Virus record (IMG/VR): IMGVR_UViG_2778261447_000007 | Span: 1-8,953 of that record | Reading direction: 5' to 3' (one strand) | Length of the DNA: 8,953 nucleotides | Source: a virus | Taxonomy: Duplodnaviria > Heunggongvirae > Uroviricota > Caudoviricetes | Shown: positions 1 through 8,953 of the stretch, piece after piece | Layout of the letters: each line of letters opens with the position of its first letter | How positions within the stretch are numbered: the stretch's first letter is position 1 | Position numbers and translations under genes: made by a program | Notes under the pieces: model-generated | The model's input: the letters and a program-made list of their open reading frames with translations, nothing else | What the model was told of the DNA's origin: nothing | The model's database searches: none

Positions 1-165
1 ATGACTCATGATGAACCCTGTTCCATGGCTCCAGATGACAAACATGATCTCATATCAGGGACTTGTTCGCACCTTCCCTAGCTCTACCCTGCGCCATGAA
101 AATGTCAATTCACATCTGAACTAATGCTCTTTAATCTAGTAACGTCTAAAATACCTAACATTTCC

Positions 166-579
166 TTAATAAAATGCCAGTACACGCTGCATAGCTTCGC
201 TCTTCCGGCACTCGCGACAGATTATATTCAGGCGCCTGTCGTAGCGGCGTATTTCTCCGTCTGGTAATGACCAGATAAGGTCAGGATCAACCACAACCGG
301 TTTTTTCACCTTTTCCCTTGATAGTTTTTTGCGGGCGTTTTGCCAGTCTTTACGCGCCTGCTCAGACGGGAATAATCCGTAGCCTGAATTGTATACATCA
401 CCACTGGCAACCAGCTCTCTGGCAAGAACGCTCAGCAGATATCTTGTCGCACCTGTTTTCGCTTCCAGTTGTCGTAACGTCTCGCGCCCGCTCTGTCGCA
501 CGAGTTCGACAACCTGCCCTTTAATTTTTCCCGCTCTTCTTGTGTAAATACTTTTGCCATAAGCGCCTCCGGCAATCAC
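166..579 (-). CDS. Hypothetical prophage protein (137 aa), function unknown
   Basis: Complete ORF on minus strand. No ATG available; GTG start at 579-577 overlaps the TGA stop of the upstream gene (GTGA coupling). Basic C-terminal half. No family recognised by eye. Confidence 0.45.
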   Translation of the reverse strand: MIAGGAYGKSIYTRRAGKIKGQVVELVRQSGRETLRQLEAKTGATRYLLSVLARELVASGDVYNSGYGLFPSEQARKDWQNARKKLSREKVKKPVVVDPDLIWSLPDGEIRRYDRRLNIICRECRKSEAMQRVLAFY

Positions 580-1346
580 TTTTCCGATACAACACGGCGG
601 GAAGAATCAGTAATCTGTCGAACAATATCCCGGTGCTTGTTCAGCTCCCGCAGCGCGGCGCAGACTCGCTCCCACTTCTGAACATGATTTTTCGCCCGAC
701 GCAATTCGCGGTTTGCCATATGCAGCGATGGTAAAACCAGGTCATCCGCTCGCGTTTCAGTAAACGATGGCAGCGACTGCACAATGTCCGCCACAGTATC
801 TGTTGTAATTTCTTCCTGTGTTGCAGCTTCCTGTACTGGTAACGCAACACCTGCTGGCTGAGGAAAGGCCTTACCAGCCGTTTTCGTTACCGGTGCAGCT
901 TTCGGCTCTGCCGGTAAATTATCGCCCGGCATGCAGTAACTAAATTTACCGTTCCGATTAACGCGTGCCAGCCGCCCCGTTGCGGTTACTACCGCCAGTG
1001 TGGAAGCAACCTTGCGAGTGCTGACACCGAACTTACCCGCCAGTTCCTCACACGTTTTAGCCCCCTCCTGACTGATAAACTCAATCATCATGTCTGCGGT
1101 AACTTTTTGTTCAACCTCCCCGGTCAGCATATCCTGTGCTTCAGATTTTACTGGTCGCTCTTCGGTTACCCGGGATTCACCTTCGCCAGCCAGAAACCAG
1201 ATGTGACCAGTTTTATCAACGAGGCCATTTCTTTTGAGTTCCCACAGCTCGTTCAGAACTTCTTCACGACTGATATCAAGTCGCGTAGCCAATTCTACCG
1301 ACGTGGCTTTTCCCATTGCTTTCAGTGCGTCTAAAACGGTTTCCAT
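576..1346 (-). CDS. Hypothetical prophage protein (256 aa) with two winged-helix-like segments; possibly DUF1627-like (YdaW-like)
   Basis: ATG at 1346; 23 bp downstream of the DnaC-like gene on the same strand. N-terminal 'SVELATRLDISREEVLNELWELKRNGLV' and internal 'CEELAGKFGVSTRKVASTLAVVTATGRLARV' look like wHTH units. Family assignment is from memory and uncertain. Confidence 0.5.
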   Translation of the reverse strand: METVLDALKAMGKATSVELATRLDISREEVLNELWELKRNGLVDKTGHIWFLAGEGESRVTEERPVKSEAQDMLTGEVEQKVTADMMIEFISQEGAKTCEELAGKFGVSTRKVASTLAVVTATGRLARVNRNGKFSYCMPGDNLPAEPKAAPVTKTAGKAFPQPAGVALPVQEAATQEEITTDTVADIVQSLPSFTETRADDLVLPSLHMANRELRRAKNHVQKWERVCAALRELNKHRDIVRQITDSSRRVVSEK

Positions 1347-1369
1347 TAAATTTTTTCTCCCCGATAAAA

Positions 1370-2116
1370 TTACTTTTCAATTCCTGGCTGACCGACATTC
1401 GCACGCCAGCTCTCCCAGTTAAAATTCACCCAGCGCCCACCGTTCATGGTCATGCGGTCCATCACGCGCCCGCCAAGCAGGGTGCTCATTGCGGTATGAT
1501 TCAGGTTCGTCAGCATCCCGACACTGCGCATCGCGGCTGTTCTGCGATCGACGATCTGGTTCAGTGTGACCTGTTCGTTGCGCGTATCACGCTGCATGCC
1601 AATCTCATCCAGAACCAGCAGGTCAACGTCACATAAACCCTGCAAAAATTTTTCGCCTGAGTTTTTGTTATCGTAGATGCCGTGTAGCGCCAGCATCACA
1701 TCAGCCACCGTGACCACAATCACGCTGCGACCTTTCGCCAGAAGATGATTACCGATGGCGGCTGCCAGGTGATTTTTTCCGGTACCCGGCTTACCGCTGA
1801 ACACGAAATTTGTGCATCCGGTTCTCAGTACGTCCGCGATGGATTTTGCCTGGCTCAGCGCATATCGCTGGCCGTCGTTCTGCACCCAGTAATTCGCAAA
1901 CGAACATTTGCGGTGCAACGGCTGGATACCGGAGCGATTCAGAATTTTTTCCACCCGTAACTGACGATTCTGACGGTTGATCTCCTCGCAACGTTTCTGG
2001 CCTTCCGCAAGTTGCCACTCACGCCACTCTTCTGCCGTCCGGTACGGCGCGGTTACATGCTGTGGTGCCAGCTTGCGGATACGTTCAAGAACACCTCCTG
2101 CCGCTATATTTTTCAT
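1370..2116 (-). CDS. DnaC-like replicative helicase loader (AAA+ ATPase, IstB/DnaC family)
   Basis: 248 aa. Walker A 'SGKPGTGKNHLAAAIG', Walker B 'DLLVLDEIG', and 'LNQIVDRR...GMLTNLN...RVMDRM' closely resemble E. coli DnaC as recalled. Starts 6 nt after the initiator gene stop. Confidence 0.9.
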   Translation of the reverse strand: MKNIAAGGVLERIRKLAPQHVTAPYRTAEEWREWQLAEGQKRCEEINRQNRQLRVEKILNRSGIQPLHRKCSFANYWVQNDGQRYALSQAKSIADVLRTGCTNFVFSGKPGTGKNHLAAAIGNHLLAKGRSVIVVTVADVMLALHGIYDNKNSGEKFLQGLCDVDLLVLDEIGMQRDTRNEQVTLNQIVDRRTAAMRSVGMLTNLNHTAMSTLLGGRVMDRMTMNGGRWVNFNWESWRANVGQPGIEK

Positions 2117-2122
2117 AATCCT

Positions 2123-3193
2123 TCACCCCCTGAAACCTGGTGGAATTTCGGTATCCGGTTCGGAAATATGATTCACACAACGCTGGTTGTTCGTCCCGCC
2201 AGTCGGGAGCAACCAGGGGTTTTCAAAATTCCGGTCAGGTCCAAAAAACGTTGTCGCCCGCTGAACAAATTCCGTTCCCGCTTTCCCGGTCGCCGCCAGG
2301 TACCTCGCGTAACGCCTCACACCATCCAGCATGACCTGCGGTGGCACCCCCTCGCGTAATCTGGCCTTCCAGGCACTGAAAGCGGATTTCTTCGGGTTTG
2401 CCCCGGCACGCAACGGGTATTCCCGCCAGACCTGTTCGAACACATCCGGATAATCCACTCGTCCCACAGGCTGCCCGGTGTTTTCCGGGACTACCCGATC
2501 GGCTTCCCGCTGAATCGCGGAATCGGCTTCAGGCTGCTGCAGTTGGTGTGATTGCTCCGACCCTGCGGTCATCGCCTGCTGCACAGCGCCCGAATCGGCT
2601 TTCAGCGCATACGCTGAATCGGCTTCCGGTGTCGTGCCTGCGGGCTGATCAGGATTGACGGTCTGAACATCCCCAGCCTGGTTCGTGGCGTTTTTCACGC
2701 CATGGACCATAGTGTTTTGATCTTCTTGATCTGTATCTTTATCTGTATCTTTATCTGTCGTGACTCGTCGTGACATGTGCGTGACATTTCGTGACGCGCC
2801 GTGACAATCGCCATTTTGTTCCCGCTTTCTTTCCCTCTCTCGCTGCGCCCTCTTGCGCTCTGCAGGAGATTTTGCGGTTTGCGAAATATTGCCGTTGTCC
2901 TCTTTCAGCACCTGGCGTTTTTCCCATCCAGTGATTAAATCACCATCAAGTACCCGCCCCTGCATCGTCTGCAAAATTGAATCAATCATCTCTTCTGTCA
3001 CATCGAGCGCACTTGCCAAATCCTCGGTCGTGACATCAATGTGACCTCGCGTGACATTTCGTGACGCGCTCACCAGGAGGTGGATATACACAGCCATCAC
3101 TGTTGCAATTGGCTGACCTGACACCCGGGCAATGGTTCGCCACTTGGGGTCATTTGGCATGTCATGCCATAATCTGAGCCAGGCATTAGCCAT
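2123..3193 (-). CDS. Phage replication initiator / replisome organiser with DnaT-like C-terminal domain
   Basis: 356 aa, ATG at 3193 with GAGG Shine-Dalgarno. C-terminus '...VNHISEPDTEIPPGFRG' resembles the C-terminus of E. coli primosomal protein DnaT as recalled. Central low-complexity linker is encoded by the iteron repeats. Sits directly upstream of the DnaC-like gene. Confidence 0.75.
   Translation of the reverse strand: MANAWLRLWHDMPNDPKWRTIARVSGQPIATVMAVYIHLLVSASRNVTRGHIDVTTEDLASALDVTEEMIDSILQTMQGRVLDGDLITGWEKRQVLKEDNGNISQTAKSPAERKRAQRERERKREQNGDCHGASRNVTHMSRRVTTDKDTDKDTDQEDQNTMVHGVKNATNQAGDVQTVNPDQPAGTTPEADSAYALKADSGAVQQAMTAGSEQSHQLQQPEADSAIQREADRVVPENTGQPVGRVDYPDVFEQVWREYPLRAGANPKKSAFSAWKARLREGVPPQVMLDGVRRYARYLAATGKAGTEFVQRATTFFGPDRNFENPWLLPTGGTNNQRCVNHISEPDTEIPPGFRG
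2729..2758. repeat. Tandem 12-bp repeat (ATCTGTATCTTT x2.5) in an AT-rich stretch with two GATC sites; candidate DNA-unwinding element of the origin
   Basis: ATCTGTATCTTT at 2729-2740 and 2741-2752, partial ATCTGT at 2753-2758; GATC at 2719-2722 and 2728-2731. Encodes the 'DKDTDKDTD' repeat in the initiator. Confidence 0.6.
2759..2805. repeat. Iteron cluster 1: five CGTGAC repeats with 10-11 bp periodicity (candidate ori iterons inside the initiator gene)
   Basis: CGTGAC at 2759, 2769, 2780, 2790 and 2800, one helical turn apart. Shares the 21-mer GCGTGACATTTCGTGACGCGC (2779-2799) with cluster 2. Confidence 0.7.
3029..3069. repeat. Iteron cluster 2: four (C/T)GTGAC repeats with 10-11 bp periodicity
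   Basis: GTGAC hexamers starting 3029, 3040, 3050 and 3060. The 21-mer GCGTGACATTTCGTGACGCGC at 3049-3069 is identical to 2779-2799. Confidence 0.65.
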
Positions 3194-3264
3194 ACTAACC
3201 TCTTCAGATACCGAATCTTTTTAATCACGTATTACCGAAAGAGATCCGGTATGAATATTGCCGA

Positions 3265-3690
3265 TCAATGCACAGCCACAGCATTTCCGGCCGGGCCACC
3301 ACGGTTGATCTGGTTGAAGCCAGCTATTGCCACCGCGACAAAATCATCAGCGTCTCTCACCAGTCGTTCCCGCATCTCCACCAGCTCCCGAAAATAAGCT
3401 GAACTGTGGCTGCGCATTCTGGCCACCAGCAAAGGTGGCATTGCCTTTTCGATCGCTGGTAACAACGCCTGAATTTTTTCAACTGCATCAGGGGTGTCTT
3501 TCTCTACCCAGCGGAAAATTTTCTGGGTATTACGCGCCAGGGCTTCAGGGTGGCTGTCGTCGTACAGTTCCGGGAACGTCATACCCAGTTCGAAATACGC
3601 TTTGGTAATTTTCGCAGCCGGTACTTTTTCGCCGTCCGGATGCGCCCAGGCATTCATCGCCATGCGGATGTGCTCATGTTTGATTTTCAT
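3265..3690 (-). CDS. ydaT: YdaT-like protein (141 aa; cII-analogue position in Rac-like prophages)
   Basis: ATG at 3690 overlaps the stop of the upstream Cro-like gene (ATGA). Position and size fit the second gene of the Rac ydaS-ydaT operon; N-terminus 'MKIKHEHI...' recalled as YdaT-like. Not verified by alignment. Confidence 0.65.
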   Translation of the reverse strand: MKIKHEHIRMAMNAWAHPDGEKVPAAKITKAYFELGMTFPELYDDSHPEALARNTQKIFRWVEKDTPDAVEKIQALLPAIEKAMPPLLVARMRSHSSAYFRELVEMRERLVRDADDFVAVAIAGFNQINRGGPAGNAVAVH

Positions 3691-3974
3691 GAATCAACCC
3701 CATCAACTTTTTTGGTGTTAAGCTCATATTTATGACTTGAAGGGGGCGTAATTCCGGTGTATTCCGGCCATATAAGATCCCAGTCATTCGGCCTCAACTC
3801 TCTTCTTGTAACATGCCCTGCAGTTTCTGCTTCTATCATTAACGCACGAACAGGAGACACTGGTGAACTGCCAGATGCCATTTGAGACAAGAAGGACGGA
3901 GACACACCAAGGTTGGCAGCAAATTTTTTTGCTTCTCCAGTTTTTAATGATTTGATGAATTCCTTTAGAGTCAT
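3687..3974 (-). CDS. ydaS: Cro-like HTH regulator (YdaS-like), first gene of leftward early operon
   Basis: ATG at 3974 (M12 of the 3687..4007 ORF, whose upstream start is TTG). 'LKEFIKSLKTGEAKKFAANLGVSPSFLSQMASG' is an XRE/Cro-type HTH. Divergent from the repressor gene. Confidence 0.7.
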   Translation of the reverse strand: MTLKEFIKSLKTGEAKKFAANLGVSPSFLSQMASGSSPVSPVRALMIEAETAGHVTRRELRPNDWDLIWPEYTGITPPSSHKYELNTKKVDGVDS

Positions 3975-4010
3975 GATTTCGATCTCAACATACTTTAGTG
4001 CAAGCAAAAG

Positions 4011-4038
4011 TTTATACGTAACTAAATAAACCAGTCAA
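4011..4038 (-). promoter_or_regulatory. pR-like sigma70 promoter for the leftward ydaS-ydaT-replication operon (TTGACT-N16-TATAAA on minus strand)
   Basis: Minus strand reads TTGACT (plus 4033-4038), 16-nt spacer, TATAAA (plus 4011-4016), about 35 nt upstream of the ydaS ATG. Near-identical to the promoter at 5463-5490. Confidence 0.6.
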
Positions 4039-4077
4039 GTATTTGCTTATTTCGCAATTACTAAAGATAATGCATGT

Positions 4078-4449
4078 ATGGAAACAAGAGAGATTCGGCG
4101 TTTACGCCTCAAAGAGTGGTTCAAAGACAGAACTTTGCCACCCAAAGAGAAAAGTTACTTATCTCAGTTAATGAGCGGTAAGGCTACGTTTGGCGAAAAA
4201 GCAGCTAGACGTATTGAACAAACATATGGGATGCCAGGGGGTTATCTTGATATTGAGCCAGAAGACATAACAGAGTCTCCATCATCAAGAGCTATAGCAT
4301 TAACCCCTAACCAGCTGGAATTGCTACAAATATTTAGTGCATTTCCTGATAATGAACAGCAAGAGATCATAAAAGAACTAAGAAACAAAAAAGAAGCAAT
4401 GGAAGATTTTGTCGCACGTTGGTTGGCGCAGCAAGGTCGCCGCGCCTGA
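4078..4449 (+). CDS. Prophage repressor candidate (RacR-like/cI-analogue HTH regulator, 123 aa)
   Basis: Divergent from the Cro-like gene across about 100 bp. HTH-like 'KSYLSQLMSGKATFGEKAARRIEQTYGMPGGYLD'. C-terminal module is homologous to the downstream PaaR-like protein. No Shine-Dalgarno; a GATAAT -10 sits 8 nt upstream of the ATG. Confidence 0.65.
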   Translation: METREIRRLRLKEWFKDRTLPPKEKSYLSQLMSGKATFGEKAARRIEQTYGMPGGYLDIEPEDITESPSSRAIALTPNQLELLQIFSAFPDNEQQEIIKELRNKKEAMEDFVARWLAQQGRRA

Positions 4450-4483
4450 TGGGAAGCATACTCTTAAAAACAAGATATATCAG

Positions 4484-4882
4484 ATGGGTGTACTCGAAAT
4501 TAGTGCTCTTAGAATTAGGAAGCTTTTGTTGGTAACAGGCTGGAGCCAGGCAGAACTTGCGCGCAGAATTGGCATTACTCAACAATCCGTTCAAAGATGG
4601 GTTTGTGGTATCTCAAGCCCTACAGCAGCTAATCTAGATAAACTATCTGAAGCAACAGGATATCCTCAGTATTGGTTCTTCTTACCGTTAAATGAAGAAA
4701 AAAATGACAGAATACAAGATATAATAAAAATAACTCCTAGGCAAAAGGAGCTACTTCAAACATTTGAGGCATTTCCAGAGGAAGATCAAGAGCAAATGCT
4801 TCAGGAGATGAAAGACAAAAAAGAGTTAATGGATCGCACAATTGAAAGATGGCTCGCTGCCCGGAAAGGGCATCGGGCATAA
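4484..4882 (+). CDS. paaR: PaaR-like HTH transcriptional regulator of a three-component ParE toxin-antitoxin system (paralogue of the upstream repressor)
   Basis: ATG at 4484 preferred over the TTG at 4409, which would overlap the upstream gene by 41 nt. XRE-type HTH 'WSQAELARRIGITQQSVQRW'. C-terminus 'ITPRQKELLQTFEAFPEEDQEQ...ERWLA' aligns with 'LTPNQLELLQIFSAFPDNEQQE...ARWLA' of the 4078..4449 product. Directly upstream of the antitoxin and toxin genes. Confidence 0.6.
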   Translation: MGVLEISALRIRKLLLVTGWSQAELARRIGITQQSVQRWVCGISSPTAANLDKLSEATGYPQYWFFLPLNEEKNDRIQDIIKITPRQKELLQTFEAFPEEDQEQMLQEMKDKKELMDRTIERWLAARKGHRA

Positions 4883-4911
4883 TGACCACCATACACAGAC
4901 GGAGGTGTGCC

Positions 4912-5103
4912 ATGAATACGGCCCTTTCACCAATGGTTTCTGAGTTTGAAACTATTGAACAAGAAAACAGTTACAACGAATGGCTGCGAGCCAAAGTAGC
5001 TGCAAGCCTTGCAGATCCGCGCCCAGCAATTCCCCATGACGAAGTTGAGCGCAGAATGGCAGAACGCTTTGCTAAAATACGCAAGGAACGGAGTGAACAG
5101 TAA
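4912..5103 (+). CDS. paaA: PaaA-like antitoxin (63 aa) partnered with ParE
   Basis: ATG at 4912 with GGAGG Shine-Dalgarno 6 nt upstream; TAA stop abuts the parE ATG. 'MNTALSPMVSEFETIEQENSYNEWLRAKVA...' matches the PaaA2 antitoxin of E. coli O157 paaR2-paaA2-parE2 as recalled. Confidence 0.7.
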   Translation: MNTALSPMVSEFETIEQENSYNEWLRAKVAASLADPRPAIPHDEVERRMAERFAKIRKERSEQ

Positions 5104-5388
5104 ATGTTACCTGTGTTATGGCTTGAAAGCGCAGATACCGACCTGGATGATATAACTAGTTACATTGCTCGTTTCGACATAGATGCGGCAGAACGCTTAT
5201 GGCAGCGATTAAGGGGGTGTGTGCTGCCATTATCCGAACATCCGTATTTATACCCCCCAAGCGACAGAGTGCCAGGCTTACGTGAGATTGTGGCTCACCC
5301 CAATTATATAATTCTGTACCGCGTGACAACCTCAAGTATTGAAATAGTAAACGTAGTCCATACCCGCCGACAGTTCCCTGTAACATAA
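5104..5388 (+). CDS. parE: ParE/RelE-superfamily toxin (ParE-like, 94 aa)
   Basis: Immediately follows the antitoxin stop. Size and sequence character ('LWLESADTDLDDITSYIARFD...IVAHPNYIILYRV') typical of ParE toxins. Confidence 0.8.
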   Translation: MLPVLWLESADTDLDDITSYIARFDIDAAERLWQRLRGCVLPLSEHPYLYPPSDRVPGLREIVAHPNYIILYRVTTSSIEIVNVVHTRRQFPVT

Positions 5389-5413
5389 CCCTCTGCCCAT
5401 CAACACAGCCTTA

Positions 5414-5441
5414 AACACTCTCAAAGAGAGTGTTATTTTTT
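5414..5441 (+). terminator. Rho-independent terminator ending the repressor/toxin-antitoxin transcription unit
   Basis: Perfect 9-bp stem AACACTCTC (5414-5422) / GAGAGTGTT (5426-5434), 3-nt loop, followed by A then T6 (5436-5441); 26 nt after the parE stop. Confidence 0.85.
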
Positions 5442-5462
5442 ACTGTTTAGTTAAGTTGTAGA

Positions 5463-5490
5463 TTGACTGTTAAGTTTATTTTTGTATAAA
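5463..5490 (+). promoter_or_regulatory. pL-like sigma70 early promoter (TTGACT-N16-TATAAA) directed toward the 72-aa ORF and RecE-like gene
   Basis: TTGACT 5463-5468, 16-nt spacer, TATAAA 5485-5490. Flanked by GTTAAGTT direct repeats (5450-5457, 5469-5476) and a TTTAGT motif shared with the pR-like region. Confidence 0.55.
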
Positions 5491-5678
5491 CTAATTTCAC
5501 CAACCCACCCCGCCCCACAGAACGCAGGGCAATACTTCGAGTTACCAGGCAGTGGTCAGGGGTTAAGTAGCCAGCCCGAGGCGTATGAACATGACGGCAG
5601 GGTTTAACTTTAACTATGCAGCAGGTTTTTGTTCCGCTACCCCGGCGTTAAGGGGAAACAGCACTGAGAGAAATCAGT

Positions 5679-5897
5679 ATGCAGAAGCGAGAACCCGTCA
5701 TCATCGCGCCAGACTATACCGATGATGAACTTTATGAGTGGATGCGCCAGAAAATTAAGGCAGCGCAGGACCTGAAATGGGCCAATGAAGCCAGGGCTAA
5801 GCAGGCTGAAAATCTGTCCGCTCTGGAGCAGGATATCACCAATCTGGAAAAAGCAGCGGCATTAAGCATTGCCAGAATGATTACATACCCGCGTTAA
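5679..5897 (+). CDS. Hypothetical small early protein (72 aa), first ORF downstream of the pL-like promoter
   Basis: ATG at 5679 with GAGAG upstream. Predicted helical, charged; 'ENLSALEQDITNLEKAAALSIARMI' looks coiled-coil-like. No Arg-rich N-like motif. Function unknown. Confidence 0.5.
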   Translation: MQKREPVIIAPDYTDDELYEWMRQKIKAAQDLKWANEARAKQAENLSALEQDITNLEKAAALSIARMITYPR

Positions 5898-6248
5898 TAG
5901 CTAACCAACGAAGCTAAGGTTGGTAATTAAGGAGTTCTCCACGGGTAAGGTGGAGTACGTGCGCCGGACACGGGTGAGCATCCGGCACTGACAGTTTACT
6001 GAAAGGATATTTCCCTGAAAAGTCAGACCATAACGCGAAAGCGCACGGCGAGGTAGCTGGTTCATAGATAGTCTGTCGTTAAATTTTCGTCGACCGTGCG
6101 CTTCCGGTTGTGGCACTCCGCGAAATGGCGCGGCGTAATCATGGCGGGGTACCCTTCCCCTTGAGGACACCGGGTTGTCAGGCTGACCATGCGCCTGAGT
6201 GACAACCCCGCTGCAACGCCCTCTGTTATCAATTTTCTGGTGACGTTT

Positions 6249-6291
6249 GGCGGTATCAGTTTTACTCCGTGACTGCTCTGCCGCCCTTTTT
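6249..6291 (+). terminator. Possible intrinsic terminator (GGCGG...CCGCC stem then T5), weak
   Basis: GGCGG 6249-6253 pairs with CCGCC 6281-6285, followed by C and T5 (6287-6291). Loop is long (27 nt, with an internal CAGT/ACTG stem), so non-canonical. Confidence 0.3.
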
Positions 6292-6295
6292 AAAG

Positions 6296-6443
6296 TGAAT
6301 TTTGTGATGTGGTGAATGCGGCTCAGCGCACGCGGAACAGTTAAAACCAAAAACAGTGTTATGGGTGGATTCTCTGTATCCGGCGTTAATTGTTAACTGG
6401 TTAACGTCACCTGGAGGCACCAGGCACCGCATCACAAAATTCA
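6296..6443. repeat. 17-bp imperfect inverted repeat pair (16/17) flanking a ~114-bp segment that contains tandem GTTAAC palindromes
   Basis: Left arm TGAATTTTGTGATGTGG (6296-6312); right arm CCGCATCACAAAATTCA (6427-6443) is its reverse complement with one mismatch. Interior has GTTAACTGGTTAAC (about 6393-6406) and CCTGG-aggca-CCAGG. Confidence 0.6.
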
Positions 6444-6460
6444 TTGTTTAGGACGCGATA

Positions 6461-6643
6461 ATGGAAACGTTATTACCAAACGTCAATACGTCTGAAGGTT
6501 GTTTTGAAATTGGTGTCAGAATCAGTAACCCTGTATTTACTGAAGATGCCATTAATAAGAGAAAACACGAACGGGAGCTATTAAATCAAATATGCATTGT
6601 TTCAATGCTGGCCCGTTTACGCCTGATGCAAAAAGGACGCTGA
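6461..6643 (+). CDS. Hypothetical small protein (60 aa)
   Basis: ATG at 6461, 17 nt after the right inverted-repeat arm, with AGGA upstream. Stop is 2 nt before the next ORF start. No family recognised. Confidence 0.4.
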   Translation: METLLPNVNTSEGCFEIGVRISNPVFTEDAINKRKHERELLNQICIVSMLARLRLMQKGR

Positions 6644-6645
6644 CA

Positions 6646-6837
6646 ATGAATACAGCATTTGCACTCGTTCTGACAGTTTTTCTTAATACAGGCGAACCAG
6701 TCGATCTTGTTATTGGTATACATGACTCAATGAAAGAATGCATGGCTGCCGCAGCGGAACAGAAAATTCCCGGCAACTGTTATCCGGTTGATAAAGTTAT
6801 TCGCATGGACAATAACGAAATCCCGGCTGGTCTTTAA
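6646..6837 (+). CDS. Small protein (63 aa) with hydrophobic N-terminus and conserved Cys; possibly DUF1482/YebW-like
   Basis: ATG at 6646 (M19 of the 6592..6837 ORF) with AAGGA Shine-Dalgarno. 'MNTAFALVLTVFLNTGEPVDLVIG...C...CYP' resembles YebW-type small prophage proteins as recalled. Uncertain. Confidence 0.45.
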   Translation: MNTAFALVLTVFLNTGEPVDLVIGIHDSMKECMAAAAEQKIPGNCYPVDKVIRMDNNEIPAGL

Positions 6838-6929
6838 AACAGTTCCGTAATAAACATCCGATTTCATTCTTATATGCCAGCAATGGCAGGGATTTGTTCA
6901 CCCTTAAATCTGTAATGAGGTAAAACAAA

Positions 6930-8953
6930 ATGAGTAAAGTCTTTATTTGCGCCGCCATTCCGGACGAACAGGCAATAAAGGAAGAAGGTGCAGTTGCTGT
7001 AGCCACTGCCATTGAAGCCGGTGATGAACGTCGCGCCCGCGCAAAATTTCACTGGCAATTCCTGGAACATTATCCGGCTGCTCAGGACTGCGCTTATAAA
7101 TTTCTTGTTTGCGAGGATAAACCCGGTATACCCCGCCCTGCCCTCGATTCCTGGGATGCTGAATATATGCAGGAAAACCGCTGGGATGAGGAGTCTGCTT
7201 CCTTTGTCCCTGTTGAGACTGAATCAGATCCGATGAACGCCACTTTTGACAAGCTGGCCCCTGAAGTACAGAACGCTGTCATGGTTAGGTTCGACGCATG
7301 TGAAAACATCACCGTTGATATGGTGATTAGCGCGCAGGAATTGTTGCAGGAAGACATGGCAACATTCGACGGACATATCGTTGAAGCGTTGATGAAAATG
7401 CCAGAAGTTAACGCCATGTATCCGGAGCTTAAGCTGCATGCCATCGGGTGGGTTAAACATAAATGTAAGCCGGGTGCAAAATGGCCTGAGATCCAGACAG
7501 AATTACGCACATGGAAAAAACGTCGCGAAGCCGAACGCAAAGAAACCGGGAAATACACGTCTGTTGTAGATCTCGCCCGCGCCAGAGTCAACCTACAGCA
7601 CACTGAAAACTCAGCAGAAAAAATCCACCCTGTCACTGCAGTCATTCGTCGCGAATATAAGCAGACGTGGAAAACACTGGATGATGAACTGGCCTACGCT
7701 CTGTGGCCTGGTGACATTGATGCCGGAAACATTGACGGCAGCATCCATCGCTGGGCAAAAAATGAAGTTATCGACAACGACCGCGAAGACTGGAAGCGTA
7801 TCTCGGCATCAATGCGCAAACAGCCTGATGCCCTTCGCTACGACCGCCAGACTATTTTTGGCCTTGTCCGTGAACGTCCGATCGACATTCACAAAGACCC
7901 TGTGGCACTGAACAAATACATTACTGAATACCTGACTACAAAGGGCGTGTTTGAAGATGAAGGAACAAATCAGAGCGCAACTGATACTCTCTCGTCGCCA
8001 GTACCAGAAACTGATGCAGTGGAAACGGCAATTCCGGACAACGAAAAAACCGAATGCAAAGTGGAAGTCGAACCATCTGTAGAGCGTGAGGGGCCGTTCT
8101 ACTTCCTCTTCACCGACAAGGATGGCGAAAAATACGGTCGCGCAAACAAACTTTCTGGTCTGGATAAGGCGCTGGCTGCCGGGGCTACTGAAATCACGAA
8201 AGAAGAATATTTCGCCCGCAAAAACGGTACATACTCAGGTTCACAACAAAATACTGGTGCATCTGACACGACCGCACAACCAGAGCCGGTAAAAGTTACA
8301 GCTGACGAAGTAAGCAAAATTATGCAGGCAGCCAATATCAGCCAGCCTGACGCCGATAAGTTGCTTGCGGCCTCTCGCGGTGAATTTGTTGCAGGGATTA
8401 GCGATCCGAATGATCCGAAATGGGTGAAGGGGATTGAAACCCGCGATTCTGTGAACCAGAACCAGCAAGAAACGGAACAGAACGACCAGAAAGAGGAACA
8501 AAACAGCCCAAATACGCAACAAAACGAGCCAGAAACGAAACAACCTGAGCCAGTAGCGCAACAGGAACCAGAAAAAGTCTGCACCGCCTGCGGTCAGACC
8601 AGCGGCGGCAACTGCCCTGATTGTGGCTCAGTAATGGGTGACGCAACATACCAGGAAACATTCAATGGAGAAAATCAGGCTGAATCTCAGGAAAAAAATC
8701 CGGAGGAAACGGAAGGCACTGAGCATCCGCACAAGGAGAACACTGGCGGCGCTCAGGGCCACGCCAGCGATAATAAAACTGGCGAAACAGAAAATTCCTT
8801 AATTAAGATGAACGGTCATCGTGAAATCACATCCACCAGCAGAGTATGGAATCACCTGTCAGTCGACCTTGAAACCATGGGAACCAACACCAATGCACCC
8901 ATAGTAGTTATTGGTGCGGTTTTCTTCGACCCGGAAACAGGGGAAATCGGGCC
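6930..8953 (+). CDS. recE: RecE-like (exodeoxyribonuclease VIII family) large early protein, 5' part only (674+ aa, continues past window end)
   Basis: ATG at 6930 with in-frame TAA at 6921 and GAGG Shine-Dalgarno; frame open to the end of the window. Central 'KLLAASRGEFVAGISDPNDPKWVKGIETRDSVNQNQ' and CxxC-x8-CxxC motif (8580-8624) match the non-catalytic middle of E. coli RecE as recalled. Last residues 'VDLETMG...IVVIGAV' (from 8862) resemble DnaQ-like exonuclease motif I. Confidence 0.55.
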   Translation, partial: MSKVFICAAIPDEQAIKEEGAVAVATAIEAGDERRARAKFHWQFLEHYPAAQDCAYKFLVCEDKPGIPRPALDSWDAEYMQENRWDEESASFVPVETESDPMNATFDKLAPEVQNAVMVRFDACENITVDMVISAQELLQEDMATFDGHIVEALMKMPEVNAMYPELKLHAIGWVKHKCKPGAKWPEIQTELRTWKKRREAERKETGKYTSVVDLARARVNLQHTENSAEKIHPVTAVIRREYKQTWKTLDDELAYALWPGDIDAGNIDGSIHRWAKNEVIDNDREDWKRISASMRKQPDALRYDRQTIFGLVRERPIDIHKDPVALNKYITEYLTTKGVFEDEGTNQSATDTLSSPVPETDAVETAIPDNEKTECKVEVEPSVEREGPFYFLFTDKDGEKYGRANKLSGLDKALAAGATEITKEEYFARKNGTYSGSQQNTGASDTTAQPEPVKVTADEVSKIMQAANISQPDADKLLAASRGEFVAGISDPNDPKWVKGIETRDSVNQNQQETEQNDQKEEQNSPNTQQNEPETKQPEPVAQQEPEKVCTACGQTSGGNCPDCGSVMGDATYQETFNGENQAESQEKNPEETEGTEHPHKENTGGAQGHASDNKTGETENSLIKMNGHREITSTSRVWNHLSVDLETMGTNTNAPIVVIGAVFFDPETGEIG

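Follow-up and report, generated by a model that had tools for sequence, protein, structure and literature searches.

We analyzed an 8,953-nt stretch of DNA from a virus of the Caudoviricetes (IMG/VR record IMGVR_UViG_2778261447_000007, positions 1 to 8,953), referred to below as the window, which is part of a lambdoid prophage, namely its immunity and early region, in an orientation flipped relative to the usual lambda map. The segment at 4078-5441 consists of four co-oriented genes that include the immunity repressor: two regulator genes, here called R1 and R2, followed by the antitoxin gene paaA and the toxin gene parE (Table 1). The original prediction, which a model made from the letters alone, described this segment as a three-component ParE toxin-antitoxin (TA) cassette lying between a repressor gene and a PL-like promoter. 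The features that it listed are present at these positions, but the genes number four, two of them encode regulators, and the repressor is one of the four. The identities and order of the genes, their signals, conservation, and distribution, and the selection acting on them, were established in the analysis reported here.

R1 is divergent from ydaS, as is PaaR2 of prophage CP-933P, and its N-terminal domain matches the N-terminal domain of PaaR2 in PDB entries 7nkv and 8c3l (E 4e-31; 52 of 62 residues identical), both deposited under the title 'phage repressor protein CI'. Matches in the PDB search were limited to this domain (7nkv, 8c3k, and 8c3l), and no full-length structure was found. Identity to PaaR2 amounts to 84-88% in the N-terminal domain and to 71-75% over the full length of EDL933 PaaR2. 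Judged by its sequence, R1 is orthologous to PaaR2, which serves as the CI analogue in the E. coli O157:H7 prophage CP-933P and represses PR and PL there (Jurenas 2021; PMC8630535). The original prediction had instead taken the regulator beside the antitoxin for PaaR. This assignment was wrong: the match to 7nkv places the PaaR2 orthologue at the first gene, and the gene next to the antitoxin encodes a DicA-type paralogue, probably of the PaaR1 kind. Because the PaaR2 orthologue is the first gene and the repressor itself, a separate repressor followed by a self-contained three-component cassette is a poor description of the locus.

The assignment of the two distal genes to the PaaA/ParE family of E. 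coli O157 held up, and comparisons of the 63- and 94-aa (amino acid) products with the PaaA and ParE families were significant for both. PaaA matches the Pfam family PaaA2 (PF21217; E 1e-20, 73.8 bits against a cutoff of 27) and PDB PaaA2 chain 3zbe (E 2e-34; 58 of 62 residues identical, 94%), with no match to a helix-turn-helix (HTH) family in the Pfam scan. ParE matches the Pfam family ParE_toxin (PF05016; E 2.5e-16, 60.5 bits against a cutoff of 23) and PDB ParE2 chain 5cw7_B (E 2e-59; 88 of 93 residues identical, 95%). As predicted, the paaA stop codon TAA (5101-5103) abuts the parE ATG at 5104, and the antitoxin gene is preceded by a GGAGG Shine-Dalgarno sequence (4901-4905, plus strand), 6 bases 5' of its ATG. 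By analogy with the CP-933P alleles, ParE would be toxic and PaaA would neutralize it.

The pair lies between the CI analogue and PL, in the slot equivalent to rexAB, as the original prediction had it and as published for paaA2-parE2, which stands in place of rexA-rexB (Prolic-Kalinsek 2023; PMC9986795). As in lambda cI-rexA-rexB, the repressor gene of the window comes first, with a predicted leaderless transcript from a PRM-like promoter, and is followed by accessory genes that would be expressed in the lysogen and by a terminator before PL. In contrast to lambda, these accessory genes form a ParE-type TA pair and not a RexAB exclusion system; their products are PaaA and ParE by Pfam and have no sequence relationship to RexA or RexB, and the resemblance to the lambda exclusion system is one of position only. 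The position and the predicted co-expression with the repressor could suggest, by positional analogy only, that the pair is mainly an abortive-infection or exclusion system that functionally replaces RexAB. We consider this improbable, given that neither PaaA nor ParE has a match in PADLOC and that the phenotype shown in CP-933P is post-segregational killing and plasmid stabilization by an addictive pair, with ParE2 not activated in either transcriptional state (Jurenas 2021). We therefore favor an addiction module in the immunity region.

The control signals around the four genes resemble those of CP-933P. In the divergent control region, the -35 box of the PR-like promoter aligns with the CP-933P operator region, and the hexamers of the PRM-like promoter, together with the 6-nt gap from its -10 box to the R1 ATG, are conserved with CP-933P (EDL933). 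R1 looks leaderless, because its ATG coincides with the predicted +1 of this conserved PRM-type promoter; in CP-933P, paaR2 was found to be leaderless by rapid amplification of 5' cDNA ends (5'RACE) and N-terminal sequencing (Jurenas 2021). The PL-like promoter that had been predicted beyond the cassette is present, is flanked by GTTTAGT-type repeats, and coincides with the PL933P region when aligned to EDL933. Both of its hexamers recur in the PR-like promoter, as published for PR933P and PL933P, and PL933P is repressed by PaaR2 and YdaS, which bind the 97-bp intergenic region (Jurenas 2021). GTTTAGT-like repeats occur at 4058-4066 and 5445-5453; four were found where 1.5 were expected, which is not above chance (at least four in 16 of 200 shuffles). 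The ydaS/ydaT junction carries an exact match to the published YdaT site, TTGATTN6AATCAA (Prolic-Kalinsek 2023), where chance alone would give 0.07 matches. In CP-933P, a PRE-type promoter is activated by YdaT (Jurenas 2021).

Downstream of parE, we found an intrinsic terminator with a folding energy of -11.5 kcal/mol (z = -3.8; none of 200 shuffles folded as well). The terminator of the original prediction is thus real and sound, but its strength is moderate, not strong. It is the sole plus-strand terminator-like site within 4078-5441 in a scan of 3600-6000. In the consensus scan, promoter-like sites were absent both from the R1-R2 interval and from the region before paaA, and nothing resembling a terminator was detected on the plus strand from R1 to the end of parE.

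Taken as a whole, the locus shares with the cryptic prophage CP-933P/Sp12 of E. coli O157:H7 the order ydaT, ydaS, PR/PRM, repressor, antitoxin, toxin, terminator, and PL, as well as the PRM hexamers, the leaderless spacing, the identity of the PR and PL hexamers, and the exact YdaT box. The gene content differs. The CP-933P locus has three genes, with paaR2 directly followed by paaA2 (EDL933), whereas in the window the 132-aa repressor gene R2 lies between them. R2 has no counterpart in CP-933P, and in DNA searches, O157:H7 genomes aligned to the window only from the first base of paaA onward.

Table 1. Genes and control signals in the window: the four-gene operon, its control signals, and the neighboring genes
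Feature	Position	Strand	Remarks
R1, PaaR2 orthologue (by sequence), 123 aa	4078-4449	+	
R2, putative second repressor, 132 aa	4484-4882	+	HTH_3 N-domain and PaaR-type C-domain
paaA, PaaA2-type antitoxin, 63 aa	4912-5103	+	
parE, ParE2-type toxin, 94 aa	5104-5388	+	
Intrinsic terminator of PRM operon	5414-5441	+	9-bp stem and 3-nt loop (5414-5434), T run
Divergent control region, 103 bp	3975-4077		Between ydaS and R1
PR-like promoter, TTGACT-18-TAAACT	4009-4038	-	Consensus scan; drives ydaS-ydaT
PRM-like promoter	4043-4071	+	-35 TTGCTT (4043-4048), 17-nt spacer, -10 GATAAT (4066-4071)
PL-like promoter, TTGACT-18-TAAACT	5463-5492	+	Consensus scan; reads towards ydfC, dicF, dicB
YdaT operator, TTGATTTTCATGAATCAA	3680-3697		ydaS/ydaT junction; marks PRE region
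ydaS, Cro analogue	3687-3974	-	Pfam YdaS_toxin, E 6.5e-10; 62% identity to CP-933P YdaS
ydaT, CII analogue	3265-3690	-	Pfam YdaT_toxin, E 7e-10; 86% identity to CP-933P YdaT
Replisome-organizer gene	2123-3193	-	
DnaC/IstB-like ATPase gene	1370-2116	-	
DUF1627 gene	576-1346	-	
DUF977 gene	166-579	-	
ydfC-like gene (phrog_1744)	5679-5897		
DicF antisense small RNA gene	6235-6286	+	Rfam RF00039, 76.7 bits
dicB	6461-6643		Downstream of DicF gene
DUF1482 gene	6592-6837		Downstream of DicF gene
RecE-like open reading frame	~6930 to window end		Still open at window end

R2 matches the Pfam family HTH_3 (E 1e-11), and among solved structures its HTH is closest to that of the 434 repressor. The PaaR2-type N-terminal DNA-binding domain is thus present in R1 and absent from R2, whose N-terminal domain is a 434-type HTH_3. 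Compared with the NCBIfam model of DicA, the CI-like repressor of the Qin prophage of E. coli K-12, R2 aligns with nearly the whole model (E 3e-16, positions 10-131 of 135, 59 bits) and the C-terminal domain of R1 aligns with positions 78-123 (31 bits), both below the family cutoff of 101. The C-terminal 52 residues of R2 are 48% identical to those of R1 (E 4e-15). An AlphaFold2 model of R2 (mean predicted local distance difference test score, 76) shows a Cro/CI-type domain of five helices that is joined by a disordered linker to a helical hairpin. Together, these comparisons argue that R1 and R2 have a common C-terminal module and different predicted DNA-binding heads. The likeness to Qin extends to the ydfC, dicF, and dicB genes downstream in the window, but dicA has no TA pair downstream. 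PADLOC returned only generic HTH matches for R2. An alternative R2 start at TTG 4409 was rejected because the upstream frame is not conserved among alleles, in which the R1-R2 spacer is 19, 30, or 34 nt.

Relatives of R2 also occur in three-gene paa loci. Those in E. coli RM10809-3 (L003) and TUM1881 (L004) and in P15-385 and Z1323CEC0001 are 68-69% identical to R2. In four such loci (L003, L004, L023, and L024), the R2 relative adjoins a divergent cro-like gene, which is the CI position, and CACTTTAAAAGTG-type palindromes (CACTTT-N-AAAGTG) surround both OR and OL. The same arrangement, with ACAGT-N5-ACTGT sites, occurs at a second locus in O157:H7 (L021), where identity to the window proteins is 68% for ParE and 73% for PaaA. 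L021 is probably paaR1-paaA1-parE1 of CP-933M, a homologue mentioned by Jurenas 2021 (PMC8630535); the name was inferred from that paper. Over their full length, the regulators of L003, L004, and L021, which carry a 434/DicA-type HTH, are 62-69% identical to R2 (69% for the CI-position repressor of L003 and 62% for that of L021), and the C-terminal domain is common to all. The R2-type regulator of the three-gene loci is probably also leaderless (L003 2930-2953): in L003, a TAAAAT -10 box is followed 7 nt later by an in-frame ATG (MKRMTT...), which gives the 135-aa form annotated by NCBI (for example, P0005).

By its domains, namely an HTH_3 and the conserved C-terminal helical domain, R2 fits the DicA/PaaR1 type. 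It departs from the CI-position members of that type in being second in its operon and in lacking cognate OR/OL operators. Neither CACTTTAAAAGTG nor ACAGT-N5-ACTGT operators were found above chance in the window or in other four-gene loci, and both types are absent from the OR and OL regions of the window. The only recurrent near-match to these operators, at window positions 6284-6297, was rejected, as it is the conserved 3' end of DicF. Because no cognate operators were found and no promoter-like site precedes R2, we call R2 a putative orphan repressor embedded in the PRM operon.

The contiguity of the R2-type regulator, paaA, and parE in L003, L004, and L021 raises another explanation, in which these three genes form a self-contained mobile cassette, or moron, inserted downstream of an unrelated repressor, with R2 and not R1 controlling the TA genes. 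The last ~80 bp of R2 and the R2-paaA junction, including the GGAGG, are nearly identical in the window (4800-4912) and in the RM10809-3 type (L003 3240-3380), which is consistent with joint movement of the three genes. However, the R2-type gene of L003, L004, and L021 is itself the CI-position repressor, with operators at OR and OL and not beside the TA genes; the consensus scan and the operator searches found neither a promoter-like site nor an operator of the R2 relatives between R1 and R2 or before paaA in the window; and R1 is not unrelated, being the apparent PaaR2 orthologue and having the C-terminal domain of R2. We therefore think a cassette unlikely and retain the four-gene PRM operon as our interpretation. 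The 5' part of R2 groups with the other four-gene alleles; because the two parts of the gene have different affinities, R2 is a mosaic with a recombination joint inside the gene.

Of 5,426 complete E. coli genomes, 17 have the four-gene layout. It was also found on 10 IMG/VR contigs, among them one that matches the window exactly across the four genes and has 99.95% DNA identity to it over window positions 1294-5661. E. coli GF60 is 99.9% identical over window positions 78-5661, and PGAP calls the same four genes in the same order in this strain. Among 50,697 deposited phage genomes, this layout was absent, and phage Evi carries the CP-933P form with three genes. A collection of 15 billion proteins contains the exact R2 protein on 835 contigs and the exact R1 protein on 806, which implies that at least one E. 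coli lineage commonly carries this allele. A contig scan for R2 in other species yielded one spurious match only, the single-protein patterns being too specific. The R2 clade (79-100% identity) stands apart in the protein database, with a gap between it and the CI-position relatives (70% identity or less), and every clade member that could be placed has the four-gene context. The 90%-identity cluster that contains R2 also holds many PaaA 'stability determinant' sequences, and its representative is a 78-aa frameshifted fragment; as this cluster looks like a clustering artefact, its size is meaningless for R2.

Ratios of nonsynonymous to synonymous substitution (dN/dS) between the window and other four-gene alleles (synonymous divergence, dS, of 0.3-0.5) were 0.06 for R1, 0.21-0.24 for R2, 0.02-0.05 for PaaA, and 0.05 for ParE. 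By domain, over all allele pairs, dN/dS was 0.05-0.21 (dS 0.23-0.48) in the HTH half of R2, which is under purifying selection, and 0.22-0.42 in the C-terminal half. Of the 18 four-gene loci examined, the window included, 16 have an intact R2. From these values, we read R2 as a probably maintained DNA-binding protein under looser constraint than its neighbors.

Several observations weigh against this reading of R2 and against simple transfer of the CP-933P scheme. R2 lacks a recognizable strong Shine-Dalgarno sequence; its C-terminal tail varies among alleles (total lengths of 131, 132, or 153 aa, the 153-aa form overlapping paaA); it is frameshifted in two of the 18 loci, an IMG/VR contig (L019 3186-3570) and E. 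coli RM10466 (L025 1548-2027); and its dN/dS is about four times that of the neighboring genes. R2 may thus be weakly expressed or decaying. Part of its purifying-selection signal could also have been inherited through recombination with CI-position alleles, because the 3' part of R2 is nearly identical to such an allele. Outside R2, the operator sequences of the window OR region differ in detail from those footprinted in CP-933P, and YdaS is only 62% identical to that of CP-933P, so that regulatory details may differ from those of CP-933P. Within the four-gene loci, YdaS identity is 92%. In L019, R1 is altered as well, and PGAP annotates a shortened open reading frame in RM10466.

The same features of R2, namely its weak ribosome-binding context, variable tails, frameshifts, elevated dN/dS relative to R1, PaaA, and ParE, and missing cognate operators, fit the alternative that R2 is a non-functional passenger: a relic of an immunity swap, kept between PRM and the addictive TA pair and slowly decaying. 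The proposed selection by the TA pair against immunity replacement (Jurenas 2021) would explain such passive retention. We give this alternative a minor but real chance. The constraint on the HTH domain among four-gene alleles, the intact gene in most of the loci, and the placement of the whole R2 clade in the four-gene context alone, separated by a gap from the CI-position relatives, argue against it. Most likely, then, R2 is a working DNA-binding protein that would act in trans or as an accessory regulator, and any role proposed for it is inferred.

Two further observations concern the surroundings of the operon. Position ~5661 of the window is a mosaic breakpoint: the left side has 99.9% identity to both E. 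coli GF60 and an IMG/VR contig, and from 5679 the right side has ~94% identity to CP-933P of EDL933. Directly after the PL-like promoter, a non-coding leader of ~170 nt (5496-5665, plus strand) is almost invariant across immunity types in a comparison of the window, CP-933P, RM10809-3, BA92, and the second O157 locus. It has predicted stems with almost no covariation and no match to an Rfam family, and may function in antitermination or processing in the manner of nut or put sites.

We conclude, with a probability of roughly 0.85, that the genes at 4078-5441 form the lysogeny-side (PRM-type) operon in the immunity region of a lambdoid E. coli prophage of the CP-933P/Rac kind and that it works by the following mechanism. 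Transcription would start from the PRM-like promoter, with +1 at the R1 ATG, and R1 made in lysogeny would repress PR (ydaS-ydaT) and PL through GTTTAGT-type operators. During establishment, YdaT would additionally drive the operon from PRE at the ydaS/ydaT junction. The R1 transcript would also carry R2, PaaA, and ParE, with translational coupling of paaA and parE, and would end at the 5414-5441 terminator before PL; because they would be on the same transcript, the TA pair would be made whenever the repressor is made. PaaA would neutralize ParE, and loss or replacement of the immunity region would free stable ParE from protease-labile PaaA and lead to cell death. R2 would have been captured from a heteroimmune paa-type relative during immunity-module exchange, and a trans-acting or accessory regulatory role would have followed its capture. 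Promoter activity, the leaderless start, repression, bistability, and addiction are drawn here from the CP-933P literature and would carry over to the window allele. In CP-933P, the locus is bistable, PaaR2 forms part of the switch together with YdaS and YdaT, and the TA pair is addictive and stabilizes plasmids by post-segregational killing; PaaR2-type repressors differ from the lambda repressor in having no RecA-cleavable peptidase domain (Jurenas 2021).

Earlier publications describe and experimentally characterize the PaaR2-PaaA2-ParE2 system, including where it lies (the rexAB-like slot) and how it is coupled to a CI/Cro-type switch. The original prediction had singled out the placement of the cassette and its possible coupling to immunity as worth checking. 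The placement is right, but it is in print, as are co-expression with the repressor, bistability, and addiction (PMC8630535; PMC9986795). The sole unreported feature is R2 between the repressor and the antitoxin, a tandem-repressor architecture; literature searches for tandem or orphan repressors of the PaaR-type family found nothing relevant. Jurenas 2021 proposed, with no examples given, that the TA pair penalizes recombinants in which a replacement of immunity has removed it, and the capture of R2 fits this proposal.

A bolder idea, which we put forward only tentatively, is that the four-gene operon is a dual-repressor immunity module, in which R2 silences a second, heteroimmune group of paa-type prophages or phages (for example, the L003 type with its CACTTTAAAAGTG operators) or forms mixed oligomers with R1. 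In the first case, the lysogen would be immune to two immunity groups; in the second, oligomers formed through the shared C-terminal domain would retune the bistable switch. The layout would also record a past immunity swap, in which the old repressor had to be kept because of the addictive paaA-parE pair beside it. The tandem-repressor variant lends itself to testing, in a natural setting, the published idea that module exchange is constrained when an addictive TA pair lies in the immunity region, and it raises the question of whether a spare repressor extends immunity to a second phage group or modulates the prophage's own switch. Hundreds of E. coli assemblies carry the variant, and strains such as GF60 exist in which this question can be tested directly.

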